From positions 380 through 64,379 of the IMG/VR virus record IMGVR_UViG_3300045988_141926: a stretch of 64,000 bases of DNA. One strand, 5' to 3'. The notes beneath the pieces were generated by a model, which ran no database searches, was not told where the DNA came from, and was given only the letters and a program-made list of their open reading frames with translations. Of this stretch, positions 37,101-55,467 are shown in pieces. The stretch's first letter is position 1; every line of letters begins with the position of its first letter. The translations under genes and the position numbers were made by a program. Source of the stretch: a virus.

Positions 37101-37113
37101 GGAGGAAATGACA

Positions 37114-37648: not shown

Positions 37649-37837
37649 ATGAAGAACATCTATGAAATCGAGAACATCATCGACGGAATCTCCGCTGATG
37701 ACTGGGCTGGCATTTGTAATCTGATGGACTACTACTATCAGTCGAATTTCTCTGCTGACGCTGAACAGAGACTGGCAAGGGCAATCGCTCCTTACGGCTT
37801 GACCGTTGAGGAAATTCTGACCTGGGACGCTGAGTAA
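37649..37837 (+). CDS. Hypothetical protein, 62 aa
   Basis: Near-identical promoter and leader to the 37406 unit. Confidence 0.5.
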   Translation: MKNIYEIENIIDGISADDWAGICNLMDYYYQSNFSADAEQRLARAIAPYGLTVEEILTWDAE

Positions 37838-38067
37838 GCGTCCTATTTTTTTGCTGTTGGATTGTTAAAATTTTAACGAGCATCGTCGCGCTCATCAGGC
37901 ACGTGGCGCTCCGAAATATTATACCACAGCAGTCCACCAGTTGTCAAGAGAAAAATGCGAAAATTTCGCACAAAATTCGCCATCCCGATTTGTATAGTCT
38001 GCCAATAGACAAAATGAAATAAGCGTGTTATAATGAATACAACAAAACAACAAAGGAGATACACACT

Positions 38068-38376
38068 ATGATTAACATTCGTTCTATCCGCAAGTTGGGC
38101 AACAATGACGGGCTGACGCTCAAACTGGGCAAAAAGGTAAACTACAAATCCGGTTGGCAGGTTGCCACTGAGGGCATCGAGTGTAAGACCGCACAAGAAG
38201 CCATTGACGCGGTGAGAGACTACGGCGGCAACTGTGGCGTGTGGTTCAGTGAGGGCGTGTATTACATCGACAAAAGCAAGCGCGTGGCGACAAAGCGTGA
38301 AGCTATGGAAATCGGCAAAGCGTGTAATCAAATTTCCGTGCTGAAATGGGCGACTATGACGCTTGCCTACTGCTAA
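38068..38376 (+). CDS. Hypothetical protein, 102 aa
   Basis: Promoter, SD AAGGAG, and terminator at 38383-38406. Confidence 0.55.
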   Translation: MINIRSIRKLGNNDGLTLKLGKKVNYKSGWQVATEGIECKTAQEAIDAVRDYGGNCGVWFSEGVYYIDKSKRVATKREAMEIGKACNQISVLKWATMTLAYC

Positions 38377-38486
38377 AATAATAGGGCGAAAGCCCTATTA
38401 TTTTTTGAAAAAATTTTGAAAAAGGTATTGACAAATCCCGAAATAGGTGCTATAATTAAACCATCAAAAGAGAGGAGCTAAACGCT

Positions 38487-38678
38487 ATGACAAACTTTGA
38501 ACAGTATCTCGAAAACCTGATGGGCATGAAGAAAGCGGAAATCATCAACGAGGGCATCACCTGGGGCATCTGGGCGAACACCGAGGGCAACAAAGCCGAG
38601 CTGATGAAATGGAAAAAAGTTCTGCTGGCGCGGTGTCTCGCCGATAGGCTGGAAAGGCTGGAAAGGCGGGGCTACTAA
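38487..38678 (+). CDS. Hypothetical protein, 63 aa
   Basis: Promoter, SD GAGGAG, and a terminator. Confidence 0.5.
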   Translation: MTNFEQYLENLMGMKKAEIINEGITWGIWANTEGNKAELMKWKKVLLARCLADRLERLERRGY

Positions 38679-38744
38679 GACAAGGGCGAAAGCCCTTGTT
38701 TTTTTTATATGGCATTATGCCCATAATTCGGTTGAAAATTTTGG

Positions 38745-38940
38745 TCATTTTGCCTATTGACATTCTGCCCCATTTGTGTTATACTCGGTCGCGCGTCCAC
38801 GGCCCTGATGCGCGGAAATTCCATTATACCACAGCCCAGCCAATTTGTCAAGCATTTTGTGTTCGGTATTTTCAACAATTTTTTATCCCGAAATTTGTGC
38901 AATTTGACGGTTGACAACGCCCAGTAGGTGTGCTATACTT
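38745..38940. promoter_or_regulatory. Convergent-promoter palindromic module, copy 1
   Basis: Rightward TTGACA-17-TATACT. GC hairpin. Leftward TTGACA-17-TATAAT on the minus strand (plus-strand attata-N17-tgtcaa). Third rightward promoter TTGACA-17-TATACT. Confidence 0.6.
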
Positions 38941-38968
38941 ATACTATCAATTAAAGGAGGTCATTCAA

Positions 38969-39145
38969 ATGGCTACTATCGCAATCCTCGCAATCCTCGC
39001 CCTCGCTGGCTTCGCTGGCGTTCAGTGTGTCGGCGGGTATATGGTCTATCGTCAGACGCACGACTGGCACTTCCTCGTTGGCTCTATCCTATATGGCGTT
39101 GCCTGTATCGGTCTGGTGCGCTTCGTGTTCAATATGGGATGGTAA
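38969..39145 (+). CDS. 58-aa membrane protein with two transmembrane segments
   Basis: SD AAAGGAGG. Confidence 0.5.
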   Translation: MATIAILAILALAGFAGVQCVGGYMVYRQTHDWHFLVGSILYGVACIGLVRFVFNMGW

Positions 39146-39146
39146 T

Positions 39147-39470
39147 ATGGAAAACTACACTATGTCGAACCATCTGACAGAGGAGCGGGCTAACCGGCTC
39201 GCCCTCTTACAGGAATATCTCGGATATTCCGACCGCGTGATGATTGAGGTCATCGACCAGCGACAGACCGCTCGACTGCGTTTGCTCTCGACTGGTATTA
39301 TCCTCGTGCTGGACTTATATGAGAATTTCATCATCACCGCATACCCCGCAACTTTTGAACGGGCTGTCGCTATATACAAGAGTGCTGGCAAAAACCGTCT
39401 GCCCCAGCAGTTGGTTAAGCGCATCCGCAAGAATGAGGAACGCCACCCGGAATTTTATGTGGTAAAGTAG
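39147..39470 (+). CDS. Hypothetical protein, 108 aa. The only TAG-terminated ORF in the GC-rich block
   Basis: ORF. A TGA lies 5 codons after the TAG. Confidence 0.5.
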   Translation: MENYTMSNHLTEERANRLALLQEYLGYSDRVMIEVIDQRQTARLRLLSTGIILVLDLYENFIITAYPATFERAVAIYKSAGKNRLPQQLVKRIRKNEERHPEFYVVK

Positions 39471-39541
39471 AAAATTGGGGCTTGACAACAAGCCCCATTT
39501 CTGCTATAATGAGTATAACAAAGCAAGGGAGGACGAAAAAA

Positions 39542-39868
39542 ATGTCTGATGTAATTATCGCTGGTCTGCTTATGGCTGGTCTGATGGGTCTGCCTGTTGG
39601 TCTGATTATCGCCATTAGCCGCGACCACTGGTGGAGTAAGGTACTGGCTCTCATTATTTCCTGTGCTATCTTCTTCGGCTTCGGCTGTGCGTTCGGGCAA
39701 GAGAGTGTCAATGACCGCGACACATTTAACAACGGTGTATGTGTCAAGTGTGGTGGCGAATATCGTTTCAGTTCCTCTACTCGCTACCGTATGAGCGAAA
39801 CATTTTACTACACCTGTCAAGACTGCGGTTGGACAATCGAAACCAACTGCTTGATGAACAAAAATTAA
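39542..39868 (+). CDS. Membrane-anchored Zn-ribbon protein, 109 aa
   Basis: N-terminal transmembrane segment, CxxC-N25-CxxC. The promoter's -35 lies in a terminator loop. Confidence 0.5.
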   Translation: MSDVIIAGLLMAGLMGLPVGLIIAISRDHWWSKVLALIISCAIFFGFGCAFGQESVNDRDTFNNGVCVKCGGEYRFSSSTRYRMSETFYYTCQDCGWTIETNCLMNKN

Positions 39869-39937
39869 GATAGGGGCTTGACAAACAAGCCCTTATCTGT
39901 TATAATAGATAATACCAAGAGAAAGGAGAATATCAAA

Positions 39938-40168
39938 ATGGAATTTATTGAGTCCCCTATCTATGTCAAGTTGAGTGATGAAGAGCGCAATTCACTCCAT
40001 GAGGTTTATGTCATTCTGAATGACCTTGTAAACGCCGCCGAAGAGAATGACTGCGAGTATGTGGGCAATCCGTTGACTGGTGATGGCTATGGGCGGTTTG
40101 ATGTGAGCCAAGCCGCTGAAATTTGCCGAGTGTTCGCACCTGCTGAAAAGTTAGAAATCAGTAATTAA
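39938..40168 (+). CDS. Hypothetical protein, 76 aa (paralog A)
   Basis: Promoter and SD. Confidence 0.5.
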   Translation: MEFIESPIYVKLSDEERNSLHEVYVILNDLVNAAEENDCEYVGNPLTGDGYGRFDVSQAAEICRVFAPAEKLEISN

Positions 40169-40182
40169 AGGAGGGAAACAAA

Positions 40183-40410
40183 ATGGAAGTTATTAAAGCC
40201 CCCATCTATGTCAAAATGACAGAGAAAGAGCGGAAAACCCTGCGCGATGCCTATGACATTCTGAATGAATTGTATAACGTCATCGCCGATAATGACTGCG
40301 ACTATGTGGGCGATACTTGCGGGAATACCTATGACAGAGTGGACGTCGCGCTTACGGCGAATGTGCTTCAAATGCTTGCCCCCACTGAAAAAGTGGAAAT
40401 CGGTAAATAA
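40183..40410 (+). CDS. Hypothetical protein, 75 aa (tandem paralog B)
   Basis: About 45% identical to the 39938 product. Confidence 0.5.
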   Translation: MEVIKAPIYVKMTEKERKTLRDAYDILNELYNVIADNDCDYVGDTCGNTYDRVDVALTANVLQMLAPTEKVEIGK

Positions 40411-40498
40411 AAAAATGTGGGAGAAATCCCACATTTTTTATTGACAACAACCAGTAGGTGTGCTATAATGTAGACAATGAAACAAGGAGGTAAAAACA

Positions 40499-40705
40499 AT
40501 GACTGCATTTGAAATTCGAGAGGAACTGGCGAACCGCTACAATTTAGAAATCCGCAATGTCTGCTGTTATCACTGTCAATACTGGGGCTATAACTGCGGT
40601 AAGGTGCTGAACTCTCAGTGTGAGAGCCGATGCACCAAGAGAATGAAAGACTGGACGTGGGCAAGCCAGTATTGCCGTGGCTTCGTTCCGAAATCGGGAA
40701 AGTAA
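40499..40705 (+). CDS. Cys-rich protein, 68 aa
   Basis: Promoter and SD. Confidence 0.45.
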   Translation: MTAFEIREELANRYNLEIRNVCCYHCQYWGYNCGKVLNSQCESRCTKRMKDWTWASQYCRGFVPKSGK

Positions 40706-40729
40706 ATCAAATAAAAAGGAGATACACTT

Positions 40730-40978
40730 ATGAAAATCATTCTCATTATTTACATCATTGGTATTGTTCTCTACTGGCTGGGTATCGCAAGCATCATTTC
40801 GACTATGAAGAAAAACAAGGAACAGGCGCAAGAAGTATTCAAGAACCGGGGTGAAAGCAAGCGCAGTCCGTTCTCTAACTGGTTGACCGTTATCACCGGC
40901 TCAATCATTCCGATTTTTCATTACGCCGTAGCATTCCTCTACATTTTCAAACCGGATTTTATTTTTGAAAAGGAATAA
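40730..40978 (+). CDS. Membrane protein, 82 aa
   Basis: Two hydrophobic segments. Confidence 0.45.
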   Translation: MKIILIIYIIGIVLYWLGIASIISTMKKNKEQAQEVFKNRGESKRSPFSNWLTVITGSIIPIFHYAVAFLYIFKPDFIFEKE

Positions 40979-41034
40979 AAATCATTTGGGCTGGATGAAC
41001 AAAAATCCAGCCCAATTTTTGTATAATTTTCCAC

Positions 41035-41170
41035 TTGACATTTTCGGCCGCGCGCTCACGAATGTGGCGCCCGGCATTTTTGTCAATAGGTATACTTCAC
41101 AAATTTTTCGCCGCAATTTTGTGCATTTTGACGATTGACTTCTATCCCGTAATGTAGTACAATGGCTATA
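41035..41170. promoter_or_regulatory. Degenerate copy of the convergent-promoter module (copy 2)
   Basis: Retains the GC hairpin, the leftward -35 tgtcaa and the third promoter (TTGACT-17-TACAAT). Palindrome arms are lost. Confidence 0.4.
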
Positions 41171-41192
41171 CTGAAACAAGGAGGTATGTATT

Positions 41193-41411
41193 ATGGATTT
41201 AAAGCAAGCGTATCAGGCGGTTTTCGCAGACCTGCGTGAATGCCCTATGTTCCACGGGCGGTATGACGCCATCAATGGCAATCCCTACTTTATGTCCGGC
41301 ATTGAGACGGTTATGGAGGTAATCGCCAATCGCGCCTATGATGATGATTTTGCCGAGAAGTTCTCCAATGAATTTACTGACAATATGTTAAGGAGTAGAG
41401 AAAGTGTTTAA
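41193..41411 (+). CDS. Hypothetical protein, 72 aa
   Basis: ORF with an SD. Confidence 0.5.
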   Translation: MDLKQAYQAVFADLRECPMFHGRYDAINGNPYFMSGIETVMEVIANRAYDDDFAEKFSNEFTDNMLRSRESV

Positions 41412-41580
41412 TATTGTATTGGCACTAATCGCCGTAGGCGGGTGCGCGTGGGCGATTATCCGCTCTATTCTCTGGCGAAATGAAAAATACCTATCCACCG
41501 AGGAGCAAATCCGCGAAATGATGGATGAAACGTCTATTTCCACTGAAACGCTGTGGAATCTGTTTGACAGACTAAACTGA
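41404..41580 (+). CDS. Membrane-anchored 58-aa protein (GTG start)
   Basis: Overlaps the upstream stop. Confidence 0.3.
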   Translation: MFNIVLALIAVGGCAWAIIRSILWRNEKYLSTEEQIREMMDETSISTETLWNLFDRLN

Positions 41581-41594
41581 AAGGAGTAAGAACA

Positions 41595-41966
41595 ATGTTT
41601 GATTTTCAGAAACTGACGCTCAAAAAATGGGCGCGCAATTTCCTCATTCTGTGTGGTTTTATCCTGCTGGTGTATGGTATGTTCAAATCCACATTCGTGC
41701 TGTATGCGGCTGTCGCCATTCTGACCCTGACTATCGCGGGCGCGTGCGCGTATACTCTGATAAGTTCTATCCGCTGGGATTGGCGGTTGCGTGGCAAGCT
41801 GACAGAGGACGAGTATAAGGCATACCAATCCTGTGATAGATGGTTTGGTTTTCAAGATGATAAATACCTGCCGACTGATGAACAAATTGTATGGATGGCT
41901 GAAAACACAAACAATTCCTGTGATACCTTATGGAGTATGTATAATAAACTGACAGAGGGGCATTAA
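41595..41966 (+). CDS. Membrane protein, 123 aa
   Basis: SD GGAG, two transmembrane segments, and a terminator. Confidence 0.5.
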   Translation: MFDFQKLTLKKWARNFLILCGFILLVYGMFKSTFVLYAAVAILTLTIAGACAYTLISSIRWDWRLRGKLTEDEYKAYQSCDRWFGFQDDKYLPTDEQIVWMAENTNNSCDTLWSMYNKLTEGH

Positions 41967-42112
41967 CGCCCCTCTTGTCAGATTTAGTTCTGACTAACTG
42001 CACGGAACAAAAAACTAATCCTGTGAGAATTTAACTACGGCAAAAATTTTTCTTGACATTTTCAAATAAATGTGGTAGTATTATAATAGAAATTAAGAAA
42101 GGAATTGATACT

Positions 42113-42313
42113 ATGAACATCCCCTCTAAGCTGAAACAAGTTGCTAATGAGTTGGAGCAACTGTCCATCGAAATCGCCGCAGAAAAGAAAAACCTGTCCA
42201 ATAGCGAGGACAAGCAAGCCGCTCAAAATTTGAGTGATGATTTGTTTGAAATCCAGTCTCACCTGCGCACATCTATGTACTGGCTGGCGGAAGCTATGTT
42301 CGGGGAGGATTGA
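42113..42313 (+). CDS. Hypothetical protein, 66 aa
   Basis: TTGACA promoter, SD. Confidence 0.5.
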   Translation: MNIPSKLKQVANELEQLSIEIAAEKKNLSNSEDKQAAQNLSDDLFEIQSHLRTSMYWLAEAMFGED

Positions 42314-42789
42314 TGACTATGAACGCAATTATCCTATTCATTGTCTGCACCGCTGTGAATGTGGTGCTGTCCACCATCAAATCCATTCTCACGGTCAAGG
42401 GCAACAAGTGGGTAGCCGCTGGTATCAATGCGCTGACCTATGGCTTCTATTCCTATGTCATTATCCTGACCAACATTGACGGCGTTTCTACGCTGGCAAA
42501 GATGGGCATTACCGCCGCCTGTAATTTCATCGGCGTGCTGGCGGTCAAATGGGTGGAGGAGTTGGCGCGCAAGGAAAAATTGTGGAAGATTGAAATGACT
42601 GTCCCCACAAAGTATCGTGCCGCTGTTGATTTTGACCTGCGAGACATTCCCCACTCATACATTGAGATTAGCAACAAACACACGTTATTCAATTTCTATT
42701 GTGCCACGCAAGCCGAGAGCAAAAAGGTCAAGGACATTGTGGCGCAGTATGGCGCAAAATATTTCGTAGCAGAAAGCAAAAATCTGTAA
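42310..42789 (+). CDS. Membrane protein, 159 aa
   Basis: Four predicted transmembrane segments and a soluble C-terminus. Confidence 0.5.
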   Translation: MMTMNAIILFIVCTAVNVVLSTIKSILTVKGNKWVAAGINALTYGFYSYVIILTNIDGVSTLAKMGITAACNFIGVLAVKWVEELARKEKLWKIEMTVPTKYRAAVDFDLRDIPHSYIEISNKHTLFNFYCATQAESKKVKDIVAQYGAKYFVAESKNL

Positions 42790-42855
42790 AATAGGGGTTG
42801 ACAAATCAGCCCCTCTGTGTTAGAATGGTATCATCAAATAAGGGAGGACAACAAA

Positions 42856-43005
42856 ATGGAAATGATTAAAGTTTTCAATGACCACACTGGCGAAATCCTT
42901 GAAAAGACGTTCGTAGACCCCGCGGACGCGGACGACTTCGAGTTCATTCTCGACTTCCTTGAAGCGAGATACGAACGCTACCACAACGGCGAACAAATCT
43001 ACTAA
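42856..43005 (+). CDS. Hypothetical protein, 49 aa
   Basis: The promoter's -35 lies in a terminator loop. SD AGGGAGG. Confidence 0.4.
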   Translation: MEMIKVFNDHTGEILEKTFVDPADADDFEFILDFLEARYERYHNGEQIY

Positions 43006-43018
43006 GGAGGGCGCGACA

Positions 43019-43216
43019 ATGGAAATCAAAGATGTGTACTACAATGTTGAGTGGTGGGGCATAACCACTTGGGGCGAACGCTTCACTAATAGCGAGTGGT
43101 TCAAGGACGAAAACGAAACTCTGTCGTTCATCGCAAATGACCTGGCAAATGACCCGCTTGTTCGTGGAGCAACCTTCACCACACACAAAACCATCGTATT
43201 TAAGAGAGGTGAATAA
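43019..43216 (+). CDS. Hypothetical protein, 65 aa
   Basis: SD GGAGG. Confidence 0.45.
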   Translation: MEIKDVYYNVEWWGITTWGERFTNSEWFKDENETLSFIANDLANDPLVRGATFTTHKTIVFKRGE

Positions 43217-43217
43217 A

Positions 43218-43427
43218 ATGATTACTATTCTGATAATGGTTATTGCCCTTGGCATTTCGTTCCTGTTTACTGCTGGGCTGGTCTGGCTTCTCTGCTGGCT
43301 TCTCCCTATGATTGGCATCGCGTCCATCGGCTCTATCGCCATCGTGTTTTCGTGGAAACTGGCGTTGGTCATTTGGCTCATTATCGCACTCCTACGCTCT
43401 ATTTTCAGCATCACTGTCAAGAAGTAA
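43218..43427 (+). CDS. Membrane protein, 69 aa
   Basis: Hydrophobic. Confidence 0.45.
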   Translation: MITILIMVIALGISFLFTAGLVWLLCWLLPMIGIASIGSIAIVFSWKLALVIWLIIALLRSIFSITVKK

Positions 43428-43469
43428 TAATTGAAAAATCTCCCAAATTTAGGAGATTTTTTTTGTTCA

Positions 43470-43690
43470 TTTTACCTATTGACAAACGCCCCTATTTGTG
43501 CTATACTCAGCCGAGCGCCCACGGTCCTGGCGCTCGAAATTTCCATTATACACCCTGCCAGCAATTTTGTCAATAGGTAAATTGAACAAATTTGACCAAA
43601 CACACATCCCGAAAGTTTGTGCAAAATAACCAACGAAAATTTGACAATTCTAAAAATTTTTTGTATAATAATGTCAATGACATAGATGGG
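43470..43690. promoter_or_regulatory. Convergent-promoter palindromic module, copy 3
   Basis: Same architecture with an 8-bp GC stem. Confidence 0.6.
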
Positions 43691-43704
43691 AGGATGGTCT
43701 AAAA

Positions 43705-44448
43705 ATGGACTATTACGTTTACATAACAACAAATAAAATTAACGGCAAACAATACATTGGGTAGCACAAAGGACGCCCAGACGATAACTATTTAGGTAGT
43801 GGAACAACTATACTAAAAGCAATCAGCAAGTATGGCAAGGAGAATTTTACTAAAAGTGTTTTGTGTTTTTGTGAAACAAGAGAAGAAGCCGACGCAAAAG
43901 AACGAGAATACATCCAATTATACAACGCAGTAAATGATGATAATTTTTATAATAATGCGGAAGGTGGCACAGGTGGAGACGGCTGGCGCAGTTGTCAAAG
44001 ATGGCTGGAACAACATCCAGAAGAAGCGCAAGCCATGTATAAACGAAATGGGGAACATTTGCGGAAATGGTGTGATACTCATCCAGAAGAATACAAAGAA
44101 AAATGTATTAAGCCAATGTTAGAAGCAAGTCATAAGCGATTAAAAGAAAATCCTGAACTCGTTAAACAACAAGTAATAAGATTAAATCAGGCAAAAGAAA
44201 AATGGCAACAAGAACATCCAGAAGAGCACCAAGCACAAGTAAATGAATGGCGAAAGGCTGGAAGTATTGCTAATAGTAAAGCAGTAATTTGTTTAACTAC
44301 TAATCGTGTATTTGAGTCTCAATCAGCGGCGGCTCGATACTATGGCGTTCCACAAAGCAACATTAGTAAATGTTTGAAAGGAGAGCGTAAAAGCGCGGGA
44401 GTAGACCCTGATACGGGTGAAAAATTATTTTGGGAATTTGTAAAATAA
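43705..44448 (+). CDS. GIY-YIG homing endonuclease with a NUMOD-like C-terminal helix-turn-helix. In-frame TAG at ~43762
   Basis: YVYITTNKINGKQYIG-TAG-HKG matches the GIY-YIG motif. C-terminal region ...QSNISKCLKGERKSAG. Confidence 0.7.
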
Positions 44449-44512
44449 CTCTTGACAAATAGGAGAATAGGCGTTATAATGTAGATACAATAAAACGAAG
44501 GAGACAAAAAGT

Positions 44513-44959
44513 ATGACTATTTACCTCGATCTCGATGGGACGGTGATTGATTTTTACGGCGTCCCCAACTGGTTGGAGTGCCTCGAAGCACAGGACAGCA
44601 CACCATATCGTGTGGCAAAGCCCCTTGTGCATCTGTCCACCCTCGCCCGCTATCTGAACCGCTTACAGGCGCGGGGCTACAATATCGGCATCATCAGTTG
44701 GCTGTCCAAGAGCGGAACGGATAAGTTCAACGCCGAAGTAGCCGAGGTCAAGCGGGAATGGCTGGCAAAGCATCTCCCCAGCGTTCAGTGGGACGAAATC
44801 CATATTGTCCCCTATGGCGTCCCCAAGTCCAACTGTGCGACCTGCCCCAACGCGATTTTGTTCGATGATGAACAGCGAAATCTCAATGAGTGGACGGCAA
44901 ACACCCACAATATGGCATACAACGCCAACCTGCTTATGGAAATCCTGCGAAACCTGTAA
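44513..44959 (+). CDS. HAD-superfamily 5'-nucleotidase-like phosphatase, 148 aa
   Basis: DLDGTV motif I and a C-terminal FDDE. Confidence 0.55.
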   Translation: MTIYLDLDGTVIDFYGVPNWLECLEAQDSTPYRVAKPLVHLSTLARYLNRLQARGYNIGIISWLSKSGTDKFNAEVAEVKREWLAKHLPSVQWDEIHIVPYGVPKSNCATCPNAILFDDEQRNLNEWTANTHNMAYNANLLMEILRNL

Positions 44960-45071
44960 AAAAAATAGCAAATAGGGGTTGACAATCTCACCCCTATTTG
45001 CTATAATATGTAATGTAATTAAGGTATGGGACACGATGGTAAACCCAACCAAGAGAAAAGGAGAATGAACA

Positions 45072-45728
45072 ATGAAAAATATCTACTGCACGCTGGACAC
45101 TGAAACGGTAGGCGGCGCGGCTCACCCCACGGGAATGTATAATGTGGGCGCGATTATCCACGACCGCAAGGGCGAAATCCTTGCCACCACTTCCCTGCTG
45201 GTGATGGAGCATTATGACGAAATCGCCACCGATGGCTATGCCAAGAAGAATTTTCCGGTATATGCCGAACGGCTCAAAGCTGGTGAAATCTCCGCTATCG
45301 CCACGGAGCGCGAAGCCTATGAGGTAATCAAAAACCTGTGCGACCATTACGGCGTTCGCTATGTGATGGCATACAATTCCGGTTTTGACTTCTGCAAGAC
45401 CTGTTTCCGCGACCTGCTGGACACTTTCGAGTTCATCGACCTGTATCTCATGGCACTGGAAACTATCACCCACAAAAAGTCCTATGCGGACTATTGCCGA
45501 GAAAATGGCAAGCGTTCCAAGAATGGCAAGACCTGTGCAACCTCTGTCGAAGCGGTGTATGGTTATCTCCACGGCAATCCTGACTTTGAGGAAGAACACA
45601 CCGCCCTGTCTGACGCTATGCAGGAAATGGAAATTTTCCTTGCTTGTCAGAAGATGCACAAGCGATACACCAAGAACGTCCACGCATGGGACGCGCCCTT
45701 TGAGGTAAAATGTTTTCCCAAGTTTTGA
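45072..45728 (+). CDS. DnaQ-like (DEDDh) 3'-5' exonuclease, 218 aa
   Basis: Exo I LDTET, Exo II YNSGFD, Exo III HTALSDA. Confidence 0.65.
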   Translation: MKNIYCTLDTETVGGAAHPTGMYNVGAIIHDRKGEILATTSLLVMEHYDEIATDGYAKKNFPVYAERLKAGEISAIATEREAYEVIKNLCDHYGVRYVMAYNSGFDFCKTCFRDLLDTFEFIDLYLMALETITHKKSYADYCRENGKRSKNGKTCATSVEAVYGYLHGNPDFEEEHTALSDAMQEMEIFLACQKMHKRYTKNVHAWDAPFEVKCFPKF

Positions 45729-45795
45729 GATTGGGGCTTGACAGCCCCTTTCTCATGTGGTATAATGGCTATACTAAGACAAGGAGGTAAGCGAA

Positions 45796-46008
45796 ATGCC
45801 TAAGCAGGTTCTTTTCAAGAGCGACCATTCAGATGGCGTTCAGGCAGGTATTCAGGTAGATAATGGAAATGTTATCTGTGCCTGTTGTGGTGGAGTATTC
45901 GAGGGCGAGGAGACTACCATTCTCCACGAGTTCGACTATTGGGTTGACTTTTCCGAATGGATTGGCGACCCTGACCTGACTGAATACCGCAAGCACGACA
46001 CCCCGTAA
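45796..46008 (+). CDS. Hypothetical protein, 70 aa
   Basis: Promoter, SD. Confidence 0.5.
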   Translation: MPKQVLFKSDHSDGVQAGIQVDNGNVICACCGGVFEGEETTILHEFDYWVDFSEWIGDPDLTEYRKHDTP

Positions 46009-46122
46009 AAAAAGTTTGGAATGGGGGTTGACAACGCCCCCATTCCATGCTATAATAACATTACAAATTCAAGGTAGGGGAAACGATGGTAAGCCCCACC
46101 AATAGAAAAGGAGAAAAAAACT

Positions 46123-46656
46123 ATGAAAGCTCGCTATGCTAACCTCAGAAATTTCAACCGCACGGTCAAGACCTACAAGTGGCTGGTAGACCTGTTCGGA
46201 AACAAGGAGTTCACTTCCGAGGACTTCTCCAAGGCAAAGCACGACTACCGGCGGTACACCTACAATTCCCTGTCGTTCCTGCGGGATGAGGGTATCATCA
46301 AGGTGGTACGCACCGAACAGACCACCAAGGAAATCAAGCTCGACCCGTGGGACGCGGAAAGCTGGATGATTGACAAGAATGGCAACGCCCTGATGACCGA
46401 GTACAACTGGATGCGTTTGCCGGAAGTGGCACAGTCCGCTCTGCTGGCTCTGAATGGTCAGGACTTCCGCGTTGAGCGCAAGGACACCAAGACCGTGGAA
46501 AAGGAGAAGCTTATTTACACGGTCAATCCCGCTGGTATGTTGAACTGGCGCAAGGGCTATGGGCGTCTGTTGGCTATGAGAGCTGACGCGCTGGCGGGCG
46601 AAATCGTCAGACTGAACGAAAAGCGGGACGCATTCCTTGCTTGTCAGATGGACTAA
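46123..46656 (+). CDS. Hypothetical protein, 177 aa
   Basis: Conserved structured leader. Confidence 0.55.
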   Translation: MKARYANLRNFNRTVKTYKWLVDLFGNKEFTSEDFSKAKHDYRRYTYNSLSFLRDEGIIKVVRTEQTTKEIKLDPWDAESWMIDKNGNALMTEYNWMRLPEVAQSALLALNGQDFRVERKDTKTVEKEKLIYTVNPAGMLNWRKGYGRLLAMRADALAGEIVRLNEKRDAFLACQMD

Positions 46657-46689
46657 AAAAATGAGGGGATTTTCCCCTCATTTTTTGTG

Positions 46690-46885
46690 CATTTTTACCT
46701 ATTGACAAATGCGCCTGGGTGTGGTATAATGGCCGGCCGATTTCGCGCGTCTCGGCCGGAATTCACCATTATACACCCCGTCAGCAATTTTGTCAAGAGT
46801 TTTTTTACACAAATTTTTTTATTTATTTTTCCCGAAACTTGTGCAGTCTGACTATTGCAATCTGCGCTCACCTATGGTACAATAC
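46690..46885. promoter_or_regulatory. Convergent-promoter palindromic module, copy 4
   Basis: TTGACA-17-TATAAT, GC hairpin with an 8-bp stem, leftward attata-N17-tgtcaa, third promoter. Confidence 0.6.
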
Positions 46886-46985
46886 ATAATGTCAAGAGGG
46901 GACAGCAAGTTGCTTCTCGGGGGAGCCACGCTGGCGGGTGTGATAACTCGGTAACTGACCCGCATTTCCCCTCTTGACAATCTTC
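46886..46985 (+). ncRNA. Small non-coding transcript 1
   Basis: The 5' GUCAAGAGGGGA pairs with a 3' UCCCCUCUUGAC. The 3' arm is the next promoter's -35. Confidence 0.45.
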
Positions 46986-47007
46986 GTCAAAGGTGCTATA
47001 ATGGGTA

Positions 47008-47100
47008 GTGTCAAGAGGGGAACGGCACGGCAGATGCGTCTAATGTGTCGCTTGTGTAGACAGGTTTCAGAAATTTGAAAAAATTTCAAAAAACCTCTTG
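47008..47100 (+). ncRNA. Small non-coding transcript 2
   Basis: Same 5' motif. Closing stem caagagg/cctcttg. Confidence 0.45.
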
Positions 47101-47138
47101 ACAATCCCCAGCACCCGTGCTATAATTGATAATGTCAA

Positions 47139-47400
47139 GAGGGGAACAGCCCCACCCAAGAAATCCGCGGGTCGCGAACCGTGCGAGAGTAAAGGAAGTA
47201 AGCCCTATACCAGCGCAGTAAAGCCTGAGCATGGAGCGGAAAGTGAGCAATTTGTGAGCAAGGTACAGACCGGAACTTCTAACCGGACTGCGACGCAATA
47301 ACATGGCAATACTCTTATCCGTATTCCGGGGTTGTAAGTCGTTGTGAATACTTGTGGAGCGTTCCCCTGTTGGCACTATCAAAAAAAATCAAGAATTTTG
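47139..47400 (+). ncRNA. ~260-nt non-coding transcript 3
   Basis: Same 5' motif. 3' GUUCCCC complement, then an A-run. No SD-preceded ORF. Confidence 0.4.
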
Positions 47401-47495
47401 AAAAAAAGTCTTGACAATCCCAGCGCAAGCTGTTATAATAGATAATGTCAGGAGGGCAAAGCCCTCAAAACCAAATGGAGAAAGGAATTGATACT

Positions 47496-47876
47496 ATGGC
47501 TAACACTAACACCACCACCCGCAAGCCCACCAAGCGCGATAATTTCACCGCCCTGCTGAAACTGTCCGAGGTCAAGGCTGACCCCAAGCTGGTGGAGTTC
47601 ATCACCCACGAAATCGACCTGCTCGACCGCAAGAACACCGTGGACAAGAAGCCCACCAAGACCCAGCAGGAGAATGAGGTCATCAAGACCACTGTCCTGT
47701 CCGCTATGGAGCGCGACCGCCTGTACTCCATCAGTGAGATGCTCAAAGAGTTCCCTGTCTGCAAGGACATGAGCAATCAGAAGCTGTCCTCCCTCGTTCG
47801 GCAGATGGTGCTGGACAAGCAGGTGGAGCGCGTGGAGGATAAGCGCAAGGCGTTCTTCCGCAAGGTGAGCGAGTAA
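47496..47876 (+). CDS. Cassette gene A1, 126 aa
   Basis: ELLDRKNTVDKKPT motif. The mRNA has a 5' stem-loop. Confidence 0.55.
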   Translation: MANTNTTTRKPTKRDNFTALLKLSEVKADPKLVEFITHEIDLLDRKNTVDKKPTKTQQENEVIKTTVLSAMERDRLYSISEMLKEFPVCKDMSNQKLSSLVRQMVLDKQVERVEDKRKAFFRKVSE

Positions 47877-47929
47877 ACCGCCCAAGGGTGGGGAGAAATC
47901 CCCACCCTATCCCCGAAAGGAGTAAGCGC

Positions 47930-48286
47930 ATGAATGAGCGTATTGCCGACCTTATGCGAAAGCTGGATTGCACCGAAGCCGAAGCCAAGGATATTATTGT
48001 CCAAGATGCTATTATCGACAAGGGCGGCAATCCGTTTCCGCTGACCGAGGAACAGGAAAAGGCAAGCAAGAAAGCGCGTGGAGTAGGACGCCAGCCGACC
48101 GCATACAAGTTCGCACCAAGAGAAAGAAAGGCTAATCTCACGAAGCAGGGCATTATCACCTTGCTGACCGAGACACTGACCACATACGGCGCGACTGACC
48201 TGAACGTGAGCAACGCGGAGCGCGAATTTTTATTCACGCTTGATGGAACAAAATACAAGGTTGTGCTGTCGTGTCCGCGCAAGTGA
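47930..48286 (+). CDS. Cassette gene B1, 119 aa, basic
   Basis: PTAYKFAPRERKAN motif. Confidence 0.55.
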   Translation: MNERIADLMRKLDCTEAEAKDIIVQDAIIDKGGNPFPLTEEQEKASKKARGVGRQPTAYKFAPRERKANLTKQGIITLLTETLTTYGATDLNVSNAEREFLFTLDGTKYKVVLSCPRK

Positions 48287-48317
48287 GGGAGAGAAATCTC
48301 CCTCATTTTTTTTGTGT

Positions 48318-48520
48318 ATTTTGACTATTGACAAATCCGGGCGCGCGTGGTATAATTCGGTCGCGCGTCCACGTATGTGGCGCTCGAAATTTCTATTATA
48401 CACCCCACTGGCAATTTTGTCAAGCGTTTTTTTGCACAAATTTCAAAGATTGAAAATCCCGTTTTTTGTAGGTATTGCCTATTGTAATTCTCCTGTAATG
48501 TGTTATAATGATGATACTGA
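48318..48520. promoter_or_regulatory. Convergent-promoter palindromic module, copy 5
   Basis: Same architecture. Third promoter TTGTAA-16-TATAAT. Confidence 0.6.
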
Positions 48521-48535
48521 AAGGAGCGATGAACG

Positions 48536-49219
48536 ATGGAGTTTCCGAGAGTTCAGGATTTTATCCTGATTATCCAGCAGGCGGTATCTGAAAAGCCTGT
48601 GCGGGTCAGAAGTGCTGACAGACTATCCCGCGCTATCCACCGAGAATATCCTAATGTCAAGATAGCTACCAGCAACGGCGCAAGCAAGGAATGTCTGGTA
48701 TTCCCTGATTTGGGCTATGTTCTCAAATGGTCTACGGAGACGCGGGACGCAGAGCGCGAAGTGGCTGTGTATAAGAAAGCCGTAGAAGCAAACCTCGCGG
48801 ATTTTTTCCCCGCCACCGAGTTGGCTGGCTACATTGTTCCCCCGCGTAAGTGTGATGACCCTATCGCGTTCACCGCTCAACAGATTATCACCAACAGCGC
48901 ACACAAAATCATGTGGAATGAGGGCGGGATAAAAACTCGTCTCTTGCGTATCGCAAAGACTGTCCCCGACTGTCGCATCAAGCAGATTGAGCGGCAGTTC
49001 CGCAAAGCCGACCTCAATGGCTATGGGCGTGAGCTGGACGGACTGTGGGCGAAAGTTGCCGTTTCTATCTACGGCAAGCGCAAGGTTATCGCCCTCTGTG
49101 AGTTCGTTAAAAAGTATCACATCAACGACCTCCACGGCTCAAACATCGGCTACATTGGCATTTCTCCTGTTATCCTCGATTTCTCCGGCTATGGCGTCTG
49201 TGATGGTTTAGAGTTTTGA
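48536..49219 (+). CDS. Protein-kinase-like fold phosphotransferase, 227 aa
   Basis: HINDLHGSNIGY and ILDFSGYG, plus a lysine in YVLKW and a glutamate in EREVAVYKK. Confidence 0.45.
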   Translation: MEFPRVQDFILIIQQAVSEKPVRVRSADRLSRAIHREYPNVKIATSNGASKECLVFPDLGYVLKWSTETRDAEREVAVYKKAVEANLADFFPATELAGYIVPPRKCDDPIAFTAQQIITNSAHKIMWNEGGIKTRLLRIAKTVPDCRIKQIERQFRKADLNGYGRELDGLWAKVAVSIYGKRKVIALCEFVKKYHINDLHGSNIGYIGISPVILDFSGYGVCDGLEF

Positions 49220-49264
49220 AAAAAACTCTTGACAAACAGCCCCGCCTGTGCTATACTAACATCG

Positions 49265-49612
49265 TGAGGTGAGAAAAATGAAATGGCGATTGTATCGTCC
49301 CCCTTAGTAGTCAATCATAGTTTGATTAGATAGTTTAATGATTGATTATATTTATACCCCAGCCAAGATGGAGTTTAATAGAGTGTTTGTCCCACTCAAT
49401 AATTTCTTCTCAACCGCCATCTTGAACCCCTCGTTAGAAATTGGGACTGGGTACGAAGTTCTAACCACATTCACCGCGTGCCAAGAAAGACCATCTATGT
49501 GGGCATTGCGCCCGTCTGATTAGGTCTGCTGTGTAGAAGTGGGCTGGCTGTCCGGACGGCTGGCGAACATCAACAGGGGAACCAGCGTAGTAGCCAACTA
49601 CGCTGGTTTATT
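49265..49612 (+). ncRNA. ~340-nt non-coding transcript candidate
   Basis: TTGACA-17-TATACT upstream and a terminator at ~49575-49612. Only a 61-aa ORF with no SD. Confidence 0.35.
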
Positions 49613-49617
49613 TTTGT

Positions 49618-49810
49618 GTATTTTGCCTATTGACAAATGCGCTCAAATGTGGTATAATGGGTCGGGCGCTCACGAACGTGGCGCCCGAAATTTCCATTAT
49701 ACCACGCGGCACAAATTTTGTCAAGTGTTTTTTTGCACAAATTTTAGATGTTGAAAATCCCATTTTTTGTGAGTATTGACTATTGTAATTTGCCCAAGGG
49801 TGTGGTAATA
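49618..49810. promoter_or_regulatory. Convergent-promoter palindromic module, copy 6 (canonical)
   Basis: Perfect consensus on both strands: 12-bp arms gtggtataatgg/ccattataccac and hairpin cgggcgc-N11-gcgcccg. Third promoter TTGACT-18-TGgTAATAT. Confidence 0.65.
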
Positions 49811-49988
49811 TATAATTGTTCCAAGGGAGAGGGCGAGAGCCTCCGGCGGGGCGTGTACCTTAAAAAAATTCCACAAATCCGAAAAAAAGTCTTGACAAGG
49901 CTTCGGATATGTGTTAGAATATAGATGTTCCAAGAGGGAAACAACAATAAGGTGGGCGACACCTAAAAACGCAGAAAGGGTTGATACT

Positions 49989-50408
49989 ATGACTAACACT
50001 ACTTCCTCTGTGCGCCTGACCAAGCGCGACTACTTCACCGCCATTCTGTCCAAGGTGGATATGGACGCCACTTATGACATTCCCAAGGGCGATGCCACTG
50101 TCAAGGTTTCCGGTGCTGATGTGGCGGGCTTCCTGAACCACGAGCTGGAACTGCTCGACCGCAAGAACACCGTGGACAAGAAGCCCACCGCCACCCAGCT
50201 GGCAAACGAGGGTATCAAGGCTGACATCAAGGCGTTCCTGGACGCCCACAAGGGCGAGAAGTACACCGTCTCCGCTCTGATGAAGTCTGTCCCCGCTATC
50301 GCCGATGCGTCCAATCAGAAGGTTTCTTCTTTGGTGCGTCAGATGGTCATTGACGGTCTGGCAGAGCGTATCGAAGATAAGCGCAAGGCGTATTTCACCG
50401 CCAAGTGA
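49989..50408 (+). CDS. Cassette gene A2, 139 aa
   Basis: Shares ELLDRKNTVDKKPT and QKVSSLVRQMV with A1. Confidence 0.55.
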   Translation: MTNTTSSVRLTKRDYFTAILSKVDMDATYDIPKGDATVKVSGADVAGFLNHELELLDRKNTVDKKPTATQLANEGIKADIKAFLDAHKGEKYTVSALMKSVPAIADASNQKVSSLVRQMVIDGLAERIEDKRKAYFTAK

Positions 50409-50472
50409 GACAAGAGGGGGGGGAGATAACCTCTCCCCCTCTCTCCCCTAAAATCTGAAAAGGCGGTGTTTT

Positions 50473-50871
50473 ATGGCTGACATTTCCAAAACCGAATGGC
50501 TGAAAAACGCTATGGCGAAAATGGGCTGGACTGCCGATGAAGCGGAAGCCGTGTGGAACTCTGACCGAGAAATCGACAAGGGTAAGAAACAGGATTTTGA
50601 CCTGTCGAAAGAACAGCTTAAAATCGCCCAAAAATTCGCCAAGACTGGCACACGCAAGACCCCCACCGCATACAAATTCACCACAAGGGAACGCAAGGCA
50701 AATCCCACAAAAGCGGCTATTATCGCTGAATTGGCAACATTTTTGACCGAAAATAGCGAAAATGCCTGCGAAAATGTGGAAATTACCAACAAAGAGCGTC
50801 AAATTGCGTTCAAAATCGGTGAAAACTCCTATGAACTGACGCTTGTGCAGAAGCGCAAGCCGAAAAGTTGA
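50473..50871 (+). CDS. Cassette gene B2, 132 aa
   Basis: Shares PTAYKF-RERKAN with B1. Confidence 0.55.
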   Translation: MADISKTEWLKNAMAKMGWTADEAEAVWNSDREIDKGKKQDFDLSKEQLKIAQKFAKTGTRKTPTAYKFTTRERKANPTKAAIIAELATFLTENSENACENVEITNKERQIAFKIGENSYELTLVQKRKPKS

Positions 50872-50921
50872 GAAAATGGGGGAGAAATCCCCCATTTTCC
50901 CCGGAAATCGAGGAAAAAAGT

Positions 50922-51266
50922 GTGAAAAACAAGGAATTTTTGTATGTTGGACACTATTATGATGAAAATGGCGTCTACATTCTGAAAATAGGCACGACTA
51001 ACGACTTAAAGCGCAGACAGCGAGAGCATACACGAAACTACAAGAAATCGCCTGTTTACCGTCTACCGAAAACTGGCAAGTTCATTTACGATTTTTCGCT
51101 ACCGCTCTCCAAGTACAATACTCTACGCTACGAGGACAAAAACCGTGAACGCTGGCAAAAACTGGGATACGGCGAGTTTGTGAGAAATGACAGATTTGCG
51201 TGTCCTGTGAAGCCGAAATCTGTTGAAATTACCATTCGTCGAACTTACCAAATCGCTCTCGATTGA
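50922..51266 (+). CDS. Small GIY-YIG domain protein (~115 aa, GTG start)
   Basis: FLYVGHYYDENGVYILKIGTTNDLKRRQREH. Confidence 0.5.
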   Translation: MKNKEFLYVGHYYDENGVYILKIGTTNDLKRRQREHTRNYKKSPVYRLPKTGKFIYDFSLPLSKYNTLRYEDKNRERWQKLGYGEFVRNDRFACPVKPKSVEITIRRTYQIALD

Positions 51267-51289
51267 GGGCGATTTTTTTTTATTTAATT

Positions 51290-51440
51290 TGACTATTGAC
51301 AACGCCCTCTGACTGTGGTATAATGGGTCGGGCGCTCACGGATGTGGCGCCCGGCATTTTTGTCAATACACATTTTCAACAATTTTTCCGGCGAAAGTTT
51401 GTATAAATTGACTATTGCATTTTGTCCCGAAATGCGCTAT
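51290..51440. promoter_or_regulatory. Degenerate copy of the convergent-promoter module (copy 7)
   Basis: TTGACA-17-TATAAT and a hairpin. The 3' arm is deleted. Confidence 0.45.
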
Positions 51441-51491
51441 ACTATAAACAATCTGAGGGAGCTGGAACCCACCAACAGCACGGAGGCATCT

Positions 51492-52100
51492 ATGAATAAG
51501 AGCCAGTTTTTTGACCACGAAATCGAGTTCATTCAGTCCGAGGATTTGCGCTCATTCGTGCGCTATTACTTCGATTGTATCGTTCCCGACTATTTCTGGA
51601 CTATCGGCGCGAGTTCTTCCGGCAAGTTCCATCCGGCTATGAGCCAAGGCGAGGGCGGTTTGGTACGCCACACTAAGGCGGTTGCGTGGTTTTGTGAGGA
51701 ATTGCTCCGCATGAGCCAGTGGGCGTATCTCACTGACGAGCGCAAGGACTACGCAAGAGTTGCCTGTCTGCTCCACGATACAGCCAAGTATGGTTTACAC
51801 GAGTTCGACAAGGAGTTGTACCCCAAGCACGGGGAAATGGCGGCTGACCAAGTACGCCGTTCGTGGCTGGTCTTTTTCGAGAGCGACTGCCCCTATGAGT
51901 TGACGCAAGCCATCAAGTCCCACATGGGTCAATGGACTACCGACAAGGCGAACAGACCTTTCACTCCTATTGATAGGTTGGTACACATGGCTGACTATGT
52001 GGCAAGCCGAGCGTTTATCGACATTCCGGCAATCAACGCTGACTATAACGACAAGGCGGAGTTAAACCAGATTGTGCCTGACCTGCCGTGGGAAGATTAA
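51492..52100 (+). CDS. HD-domain phosphohydrolase, 203 aa
   Basis: H...HD...D motifs. Confidence 0.55.
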   Translation: MNKSQFFDHEIEFIQSEDLRSFVRYYFDCIVPDYFWTIGASSSGKFHPAMSQGEGGLVRHTKAVAWFCEELLRMSQWAYLTDERKDYARVACLLHDTAKYGLHEFDKELYPKHGEMAADQVRRSWLVFFESDCPYELTQAIKSHMGQWTTDKANRPFTPIDRLVHMADYVASRAFIDIPAINADYNDKAELNQIVPDLPWED

Positions 52101-52134
52101 TTTGTTAAGGGTGGAGAAATCCACCCTTAATTTT

Positions 52135-52440
52135 TGTTCATTTTACCTATTGACAAATTGGGCCAGGTGTGGTATACTAAAAGGGGAGGTACAACGGGCC
52201 GAGCGCGGGCGCTGCGGTCCGAATTCCCGATCTGTACCCCCATATGGAAAATTTTCCGTAATTCTAGCGGCCTTCATATGCGCCCATATTTTCCCAAAAC
52301 CCGAGGCACCGCTCGGTACCCATATGCCGCCCGGTTTGACATAAAAAAAAATTTATGTTATAATGATAAAAAAAACCATTTTTTTTCTCACTTGACTTTT
52401 AAAAAAATTTTTTGTATAATATGTATATACAAAATGAAAA
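52135..52440. promoter_or_regulatory. Divergent copy of the convergent-promoter module (copy 8) with a 3x CATATG repeat, followed by two AT-rich promoters
   Basis: TTGACA-17-TATACT, then a GC-rich insert in place of the palindrome, then AT-rich promoters before the 52453 gene. Confidence 0.4.
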
Positions 52441-54286: not shown

Positions 54287-54465
54287 TTTTATTTCTCCTT
54301 TTGTTCTTTATTTTTGTTCTCGTCTCTACGATTTTTACATCGGGAAAATTCCCAATGGGATTAAATAAGCCGGCGTCAGCCGGATTATTTAAGCCCACCC
54401 TCTATTGCCACAAACCTATTTCAACCCTCTATTACTATTTAATAGGTTTCTAAAAATTGACCACT

Positions 54466-54550
54466 TTTATAGAAAATTTTGACCACTTTATCTAACACCA
54501 TCAGAAAATTTTGACCACTTTTATCAGAAAATTTTGACCACTTTATTTAG
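54466..54550. repeat. Iteron array: 4x AAAATTTTGACCACTTT(T)AT
   Basis: Direct repeats with about 20-bp periodicity. Confidence 0.7.
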
Positions 54551-54797
54551 GGAGTTCGTTCTTCACCCACAAAAATTCAAGACACGTCTTATTATCTTCT
54601 AATATTTTTAATCTATAATCTAATAATCCTAAACGTTTAAGAATATCAATAGTATCATCAATTATAGCATTATTAGATGTAGTAGTTGTAGCAATACCAA
54701 TATATTCTTTAATCTATCTAAATGTAGCGATAAATGGCTAAAAACTACTAGTATAGTATTTATTAAACAAATAAATATATATATTTATACTATTCTT

Positions 54798-55172
54798 CTA
54801 AAATACATTCATCATTTTTAATAATGTATTATATTCAATTAAATTAGCTTCTGACCCATCTAATACTGTTAAATAATAATATTCATCGCCTTCATCACTA
54901 ACAAGATTTGAATCAATTAAATAAGAAAAATATTTCGCAATAGTTTTACGAGACATAGCTTTTTCAATAGTTCCATCACTTAATTCACGAGTAAAATCAC
55001 GCTCAATACTAGCCCATTTAACTTTCTTTTTCTCTATTCTACGGCGTGAAGTATTTACATTTTCTCGTTCAGAATTACATTGAAGCCAGGCATATAATAA
55101 ATCGCAATAATCCTTTTCTCGCACAATAGATGTAGTTGATGGCATTTGACGAGAGTTCTTTTTAATAACCAT
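54798..55172 (-). CDS. Small basic protein (~124 aa) flanked by iterons; candidate replication initiator or regulator
   Basis: SD GGAGG. Iteron arrays lie on both sides. Confidence 0.45.
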   Translation of the reverse strand: MVIKKNSRQMPSTTSIVREKDYCDLLYAWLQCNSERENVNTSRRRIEKKKVKWASIERDFTRELSDGTIEKAMSRKTIAKYFSYLIDSNLVSDEGDEYYYLTVLDGSEANLIEYNTLLKMMNVF

Positions 55173-55235
55173 AAATACCAACCTCCTTCCATAGAACAAT
55201 AAAAATTACGCCTTTTCTATTGAATGGTCCTGACC

Positions 55236-55385
55236 AGAATTTTTTAACCACTTTTATAGAAAATTTTGACCATTTTTATAGAAAAAATTACTCTTTTTTA
55301 TAGAAAATTTTGACCACTTTTATAGAAATTTTTGGACACTTTTATAGAAAATTTTGACCACTTTTATATCAAATGACCATTTTTG
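55236..55385. repeat. Iteron array: about 6x TTTTGACCACTTTTATAGAAAA
   Basis: Same unit as 54466-54550, with about 22-bp periodicity. Confidence 0.7.
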
Positions 55386-55467
55386 TCCGACACGGTAAGA
55401 CGCGGAAACGAAATTTCGTTTATCTCAACATTTTTATTCTAAATTTCGCTAACCGCTCTTTAATTGA

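Follow-up and report, generated by a model that had tools for sequence, protein, structure and literature searches.

In some early phage gene pairs, such as MotA/AsiA of phage T4 and gp33/gp34 of phage SPO1, a DNA-binding protein works with a second protein that adapts the host polymerase. The DNA-binding domain of MotA is a double wing, not a winged helix, and sigma-like factors are not winged helices either. SPO1, a large Firmicutes phage, carries a host-takeover module in which small early genes are grouped into short operons, each having the kind of promoter and ribosome-binding site (RBS) that is typical of high expression (PMC6873191). Its Gp27 protein, composed of a helical N-domain, a basic disordered DNA-binding region and an RNA polymerase-binding C-domain, drives the early-to-middle switch (PMC13401047). 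Late phage genes with a recoded stop codon are an already known phenomenon (bioRxiv 10.1101/2021.08.26.457843), and phAss-1 is a TAG-recoded gut phage (PMC10607447). Here, we analyzed a 64,000-nucleotide stretch of viral record IMGVR_UViG_3300045988_141926 (positions 380 to 64,379, hereafter the window), in which a cassette of two genes, A and B, occurs twice (A1-B1 and A2-B2). This cassette is an ancient, strongly conserved gene pair, not the rapidly diverging anti-defence pair proposed from a first reading of the sequence (the original prediction). As a family pair it is new and very abundant, and it belongs to a familiar kind of element, the small early DNA-binding proteins of phages.

The two cassette copies were compared by BLASTP. 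A1 and A2 aligned end to end with 47% identity over 137 columns (E=2e-38), and B1 and B2 with 37% identity over 123 columns (E=4e-19). These similarities are far above chance, and the cassette duplication is therefore real. The motifs from which it had been proposed were all found in the alignments, ELLDRKNTVDKKPT and QKxSSLVRQMV for the A pair and PTAYKFxxRERKAN for the B pair. The basic character noted for B1 and B2 is shared by A1 and A2, with isoelectric points (pI) of 8.9-9.5 for the four proteins. The surroundings were also as described: a kinase-like open reading frame (ORF) and copies of a repeated intergenic module lie between the cassettes, and both cassettes belong to an early region. 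This region has host-type consensus promoters and uses the standard genetic code.

The divergence had been thought to be rapid, which was not supported. The gene order exonuclease, A-B1, A-B2, an optional GIY-like gene and HD recurred in 14 viral contigs and 24 genome-bin contigs, even where the exonuclease was only 25-65% identical, and the duplication predates the split of these phage lineages. In a neighbour-joining tree, B separated cleanly across phages into B1 and B2, two ancient clades, and the A copies mostly grouped by genome. Combined with the conserved synteny, this grouping of A suggests concerted evolution. A 39-nt tract of A1 (47619-47657) is identical to one of A2 (50151-50189), synonymous sites included, for an overall proportion of synonymous differences (pS) of 0.48 between the paralogues, and likely results from a short gene-conversion event. 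Two to three A copies were found per genome and, where the sequence suffices, one B1-type and one B2-type gene. In 24 further loci, every B gene had an A gene directly upstream (24/24) and 24 of the 31 A genes had a B gene downstream. Wherever the sequence of a related locus extended far enough, it contained the A-B pair.

The ratio of nonsynonymous to synonymous substitution rates (dN/dS) was calculated for orthologues from the window and four close relatives, and it speaks against the proposed diversifying selection. Values ranged from 0.08 to 0.18 for A1, 0.04 to 0.12 for B1 and 0.04 to 0.16 for B2, and these three genes are under purifying selection. A2 had higher values (0.16-0.56), the excess being confined to the N-terminal ~60 codons, the only variable part among the window orthologues; beyond this segment, dN/dS was 0.03-0.24. 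The segment exists as two alleles (dS 0.5-0.9, dN ~0.48) with a ratio (omega) of 0.5-0.9. High dS together with high dN, and omega below 1, indicate segment exchange and not point-wise positive selection. The comparison between paralogues, which had been suggested as a check, was also computed, but dS is saturated (0.75 for A and ~2.2 for B) and the resulting dN/dS carries no information. The signature expected of diversifying selection, a patchy distribution with orthologue dN/dS values around 1 or higher, was not found. Being real, old and constrained, the cassette is not worth chasing as a fast-evolving anti-defence locus.

Both families are very abundant in gut metagenomes and neither is functionally annotated. 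The A family comprises more than 7400 clusters at 90% identity. The B family comprises more than 3400 at 90% identity, and an exhaustive hidden Markov model search retrieved 1200 B clusters at 50%. All are single-domain proteins, and the best 150 B matches listed were all 87-164 aa in length with no sign of domain fusion. Longer database matches were rejected as fusions because they were ORFs with mis-called starts, mis-extended through the upstream promoter. A tblastn search against 50,697 phage records recovered only metagenomic relatives. An unannotated B homologue was identified in phAss-1 (GenBank OQ749652.1, ~128178-128591, minus strand; 4869-5282 in our locus L039) with an hhalign probability of 96.7%. 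It lies under a coding sequence annotated on the opposite strand, and the early region of the published phAss-1 genome appears to be mis-annotated. An A-like ORF noticed by eye just downstream of this homologue was unsupported (hhalign probability of 0.3%).

The window belongs to the genome of a Firmicutes/Clostridia siphophage of ~200 kb whose late genes are stop-codon-recoded. Several lines of evidence lead to this assignment. In the late structural region (5490-33572, minus strand), 17 long ORFs were continuous only with TAG read as sense, including that of a 2,763-aa tape-measure protein with up to 56 in-frame TAG codons. The large terminase was 44-53% identical to those of Enterococcus Schiekvirus-like phages, Geobacillus phage E3 and phAss-1, and the A2 and B2 homologues were located on metagenomic contigs of 166-201 kb. 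Finally, genome bins carrying A were labelled Clostridia, Lachnospiraceae, Ruminococcus, Acutalibacteraceae and Bacilli. One assembly, JAZNAJ01 ("Clostridia bacterium SGB_2131"), contained at least 10 contigs with A genes and phage-type neighbours; this bin probably includes phage contigs, which makes its taxonomic label weak evidence for the host. The standard code applies in the early region (35000-52200, plus strand), and the G+C content is ~28% over 1-34 kb vs ~46% over 35-52 kb. No tRNA was found in the window. Overall, A and B belong to the early core gene set of a large clade of siphophages (about 130-400 kb) of gut Firmicutes, which are uncultured and TAG-recoded.

Each cassette is ordered as promoter, leader of ~55-70 nt, A, GC hairpin, B and second hairpin (Table 1), and B1 is followed by a true terminator. 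In the region 34-54 kb, 25 promoters matched TTGACA-N17-TATAAT perfectly, and the -10 element of most was TG-extended; both cassette promoters belong to the promoter set of this region. Counting consensus-like promoter sites of any strength, 95 were observed vs 38 expected by chance, and terminator-like hairpin sites numbered 39 vs 19 expected. Transcription units in the early region, as delimited by these promoters and hairpins, are numerous and very short. The organisation corresponds to that of an SPO1-type host-takeover module, with small early genes, strong sigma-A promoters, RBSs, terminators and a shared optimised initiation region. In relatives, each A gene also had its own consensus promoter and the same upstream layout. 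Even distant relatives had an equivalent hairpin 3' of A genes, and often B then had a promoter of its own. In the window, B lies downstream of A across the hairpin with no promoter between them. In several relatives, B has its own consensus promoter. The A1-B1 hairpin is a candidate read-through, processing or stabiliser element.

The leaders had been described as similar and structured. Each does carry small hairpins, but folding is weak (z about -1.3) and the conserved 3' part is not specific to the cassette. Indeed, the A leaders of relatives end in a nearly invariant AGAAAGGAATTGATACTATG. An exact copy of this A1 initiation region is present at 42096-42115 ahead of an unrelated 66-aa early gene (42113-42313), and the same sequence was found upstream of exonuclease and HD genes in relatives. 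Because unrelated genes carry it too, it is the clade's generic strong initiation region, and its interpretation as an A-specific translational operator was rejected. RNAalifold analysis of the two leader types gave weak support, with 4-pair and 3-pair stems and near-zero covariation terms. In the type II leader, the hairpin beside the Shine-Dalgarno sequence had compensatory changes by eye only (TTGCG/CGCAA, TCGTG/CACGA, TGACG/CGTCA). No Rfam family was found in the window or in the leaders.

Table 1. Position and properties of the features of the two A-B cassettes in the window (z, folding z-score).
Feature	Position	Strand	Description
Cassette 1 promoter	47411-47439	+	TTGACA-N17-TATAAT, 12/12 match, TG-extended -10
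A1 leader	47440-47495	+	Small 5' hairpin GAGGGCAAAGCCCTC, then shared translation-initiation region AGAAAGGAATTGATACTATG; z = -1.4
A1	47496-47876	+	126 aa, first gene of cassette 1
A1-B1 hairpin	47886-47907	+	GC-rich, GNRA loop, without U-tract; -23.9 kcal/mol, z = -3.8
B1	47930-48286	+	118 aa, B1-clade member
Cassette 1 intrinsic terminator	48281-48316	+	12-bp stem and U-run; z = -5.2
Cassette 2 promoter	49892-49920	+	TTGACA-N17-TAGAAT, 11/12 match
A2 leader	49921-49988	+	Small hairpins, then AGAAAGGGTTGATACTATG; z = -1.2
A2	49989-50408	+	139 aa, architecture as A1 plus a 13-24-aa N-domain insertion, two alleles in close relatives
A2-B2 hairpin	50413-50443	+	GC-rich, GNRA-type loop, without U-tract; -28.5 kcal/mol, z = -2.3
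B2	50473-50871	+	132 aa, B2-clade member
Hairpin 3' of B2	50872-50899	+	Weak U-tract, z = -3.9; precedes T5orf172/GIY-YIG-like gene

Structure prediction and profile searches had been recommended for both proteins. The AlphaFold2 model of A, obtained from a 39-sequence alignment, had a predicted local distance difference test score (pLDDT) of 87.6, with helices at 13-21, 24-27 and 30-48, a short linker and a winged helix at 55-123. A1 is composed of a helical N-domain (13-48) and a C-terminal winged helix (55-123) with an invariant linker between them. In the model, three helices form a bundle and the recognition helix is followed by a beta-hairpin wing, as in the winged-helix superfamily. Conservation in A is highest in the linker KKNxxEKKPTxxQxxN (84% mean pairwise identity), in the wing RxEDKRKAYF and in the recognition helix, for which the variants SNQK, SNQR, TNQR and STSK occur. 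The N-domain is the least conserved part (60%). Invariant polar or basic residues are found in helix H3 and in the wing, where a winged helix contacts DNA. Judging from this predicted fold, A would be a DNA-binding protein. Searches of A1 and A2 against Pfam, PHROGs, NCBIfam and PADLOC gave nothing at threshold, and members of the A family had only sub-threshold Pfam matches (best E-values of 1.5e-4 to 9e-4). Against PDB sequences, single-protein searches with A gave nothing significant and the profile search nothing below E=1.

For B, no significant structural or sequence relative was found. In the B2 model (pLDDT 80.3, predicted template modelling score (pTM) 0.38), helices at 6-17, 21-35 and 46-56 precede a low-confidence basic arm (57-79), a helix (80-93) with three strands (100-123) and a basic KRKPKS tail. 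The pTM is only 0.38 because the domains are loosely tethered. The three segments of B2 differ in pI (5.3 for the N-domain, 11.2 for the arm and 5.3 for the C-domain). B1 likewise has an acidic helical N-domain, a basic arm (pI 11.6) and an alpha-beta-beta-beta C-domain ending in LSCPRK. Within the B2 clade, identity was 79% for the C-domain, 69% for the arm and 52% for the N-domain. Nothing reached threshold for B1 or B2 in Pfam, PHROGs, NCBIfam or PADLOC, nothing significant was found among PDB sequences (single proteins and profiles) or by fold, and a BFVD structure search returned one uncharacterised relative only. The C-domain (profile positions 81-128) aligned consistently with residues 4-52 of ribosomal protein eL38, in the same helix-strand-strand-strand order, at non-significant E-values (E ~0.1 vs PDB; four of 76 members vs Pfam Ribosomal_L38e, the best at 0.016).

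The window also contains several repeated elements. A ~28-bp repeat containing the palindrome TTGTTAAnnnnnTTAACAA occurs six times at 35966-36620, at the late/early boundary, and has the look of an operator at which a DNA-binding protein would act as a dimer. A second promoter class has a conserved A/T palindromic spacer (TTGAYn...AAAAATTTTTTGTATAAT) and was found at 33611 (minus strand), 43641, 52392, 55464, 57939, 60907 and 61946. These AT-spacer promoters head the late operon (33611) and low-GC genes at 52-62 kb, and are possible targets of A. The intergenic module (~140-220 nt) occurs at 38735, 43457, 46680, 48307, 49608, 51274 and 52127, with a partial copy at 41046. It combines a consensus promoter in forward orientation, a GC hairpin with a stem sequence that differs between copies, a convergent reverse consensus promoter ~95 nt away and a third promoter-like site, and copies were also found in nine loci from distant relatives. 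Finally, a 22-23-bp iteron, AGAAAATTTTGACCACTTTTAT, forms arrays of five and seven copies (54448-54570 and 55214-55390) around a minus-strand ORF (54798-55199), an arrangement that looks like a replication origin with its putative binding protein.

The host-type early promoters, tight linkage, universal retention, constraint and conserved DNA-reading face of A argue for a core nucleic-acid function in the phage programme. We favour, at a probability of about 45%, a DNA-level regulatory or organising role in which A anchors DNA, B acts as an adaptor and the two ancient modules serve two sets of targets. Under such a scheme, A and B would be made right after infection from the host sigma-A consensus promoters. 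The pair was duplicated long ago, A-B1 standing beside the DnaQ-like exonuclease gene and A-B2 beside the HD phosphohydrolase gene, and purifying selection has retained both modules. A, probably as a dimer, would bind phage or host DNA. B would be recruited next to it, where its basic arm and conserved C-domain would engage DNA or the transcription machinery. In A as in B, a variable helical N-domain is joined to a conserved part of nucleic-acid type, which makes contact between the two N-domains a reasonable guess. The two modules could then act on two target sets in the temporal programme, for example early consensus promoters to be shut off and AT-spacer promoters of low-GC recoded genes to be turned on. 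Their binding targets would offer a handle on the early-to-late programme of uncultured large phages that switch genetic code during infection.

Several observations weigh against this reading. No A binding site was identified: TTGTTAA palindromes and AT-spacer promoters were compared across relatives as candidate sites, and no test linked the palindromes at 35966-36620, the AT-spacer promoters or the convergent-promoter modules to A. In the tree, the A copies do not co-diverge with B type, so that specific A1-B1 or A2-B2 pairing is not demonstrated. Some relatives have a B gene with its own promoter, or an A gene without B. In addition, the lack of a significant relative makes the role of B guesswork. 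A bolder version of the DNA-level role, which we regard as unlikely, is an undescribed two-part switch specific to recoded Firmicutes phages. There, the A anchor would recruit one of two B adaptors, whose ultra-conserved C-domains would dock on a conserved host machine, RNA polymerase or the ribosome/RF1. If true, such a switch would set the time at which GC-rich early genes in the standard code give way to middle and late genes that are low in GC and recoded at TAG.

Other explanations were weighed against the same data. Host-takeover or anti-defence effectors evolving fast under diversifying selection, each neutralising a host protein while the duplicate tracks host variation, would suit an early region laid out like the SPO1 module of small genes with strong promoters and strong RBSs (PMC6873191). 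They would also suit the very different A2 N-domain alleles of otherwise close phages and the N-domain as the variable part within the B2 clade. An anti-defence role nevertheless appears improbable in view of the dN/dS of 0.04-0.18 in A1, B1 and B2, which stays below 1 even in the variable A2 segment, and of the invariant A residues, which are placed where a winged helix contacts DNA. Moreover, both paralogues are kept in the same order in all lineages sampled, as a universal core of the clade, unlike sporadic accessory anti-defence genes. There was no positive evidence for this role: neither protein matched Pfam, PHROG or PADLOC, the latter being a weak test since it covers defence components and not anti-defence proteins. 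Some probability remains for a host-interaction role. Doubtful as well is a replication-organiser pair, with A on origin or replication DNA and B as loader or adaptor, as in Firmicutes phages whose origin-binding winged-helix organiser has a small loader as partner. The location of the modules between the DnaQ-like exonuclease (PHROG 20187/192) and the HD phosphohydrolase (PF01966), adjoining a HAD-like phosphatase, does define a DNA/nucleotide-metabolism neighbourhood. MCM and ORC winged-helix domains are among the weak Pfam matches of A, and iterons are present in the window at 54448-55390. However, these iterons, at a distance of 4 kb, surround another small ORF, and no helicase, primase or polymerase gene adjoins the cassettes. 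Two to three A copies and two B types per genome would be unusual for an initiator, and Pfam, PHROG and PDB searches detected no similarity to known replisome organisers or loaders.

A role at the RNA level has less in its favour and seems quite improbable. In this case B, and perhaps A too, would act on the translation or mRNA stability of early genes, or on the TAG-as-sense switch, by binding to the ribosome or to mRNA leaders. This phage must re-programme termination at TAG, the eL38 match of the B C-domain is consistent, and hairpins with compensatory changes (by eye) lie next to the Shine-Dalgarno site of A leaders. Yet the eL38 E-values are not significant, the leaders fold weakly with thin RNAalifold support, and the conserved initiation region is common to unrelated early genes, leaving no cassette-specific operator. 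Most improbable is a toxin-antitoxin-like addiction or abortive pair, in which A would be the DNA-binding antitoxin and B, encoded downstream, a small toxin. In order and size (a DNA-binding protein and then a basic protein, each of ~120 aa), the genes resemble those of type II modules. On the other hand, B fell in no toxin family by Pfam, NCBIfam, PADLOC, PDB sequences or fold, and neither protein matched a defence or toxin-antitoxin model. The genes often have their own constitutive-type consensus promoter instead of forming an autoregulated operon, some A copies lack B, and two ancient paralogous sets occupy a fixed position in a lytic-type early region.

Other genes and units lie near the cassettes or elsewhere in the window. 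The kinase-like ORF between them (48536-49219, 227 aa) has the motifs VLKW, HINDLHGSNIG (HxNDLHxxN) and ILDFSG (DFS) by eye and is present in only some close relatives; it had no Pfam, PHROG or PDB match. Two promoter-to-terminator units (47127-47400 and 49258-49609) contain no plausible ORF and are possibly non-coding RNAs, with no Rfam match. The unit at 49258-49609 and the kinase-like gene form one insertion that is absent from one relative. Three homing-endonuclease-like genes (GIY-YIG/NUMOD, T5orf172 and HNH_3) were found at 43861-44448, 50868-51266 and 60963-61652. The T5orf172 gene (50868-51266, Pfam E=1.4e-4) is directly 3' of B2 and is missing in another relative.

Among described proteins, the closest known kind for A is that of the ArsR/SmtB, PadR, MarR and BlaI/MecI winged-helix regulators, although no Pfam or NCBIfam model matched at its cut-off. 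The dimerisation helices or sensor domain specific to MarR, PadR, BlaI/MecI and ArsR were not found at their usual position. The extra helices of A are N-terminal and joined by the invariant KKNxxEKKPTxxQ linker, which those families lack. Also unlike them, A has no evident ligand or metal site and occurs as two to three paralogues per phage, each paired with B. At the level of organisation, the early region of the window shares the layout of the SPO1 takeover module, namely small early genes, short operons and strong promoters and RBSs. However, none of the PHROG or Pfam families of SPO1-like phages resembled A or B, and no homology to SPO1 gp37-gp60 was detected by PHROG matching or by tblastn against the 50,697 phage records. 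The SPO1 takeover genes are also largely dispensable, whereas A and B are conserved clade-wide under strong purifying selection. B has a predicted layout like that of SPO1 Gp27: within ~120-155 aa, a small N-domain of helices is followed by a basic flexible stretch of DNA-binding type and then by a C-domain that is small and folded. The two differ in the arm (~23 residues in B vs ~70) and in the C-domain (a helix and three strands vs two helices). Gp27 thus offers an analogy to how B may work, with no claim of membership or homology, and polymerase binding and condensates are features on the Gp27 side of the comparison. The likeness of A-B to MotA/AsiA and gp33/gp34 is a purely functional analogy as well, in which the two cassette sets could serve two temporal classes.

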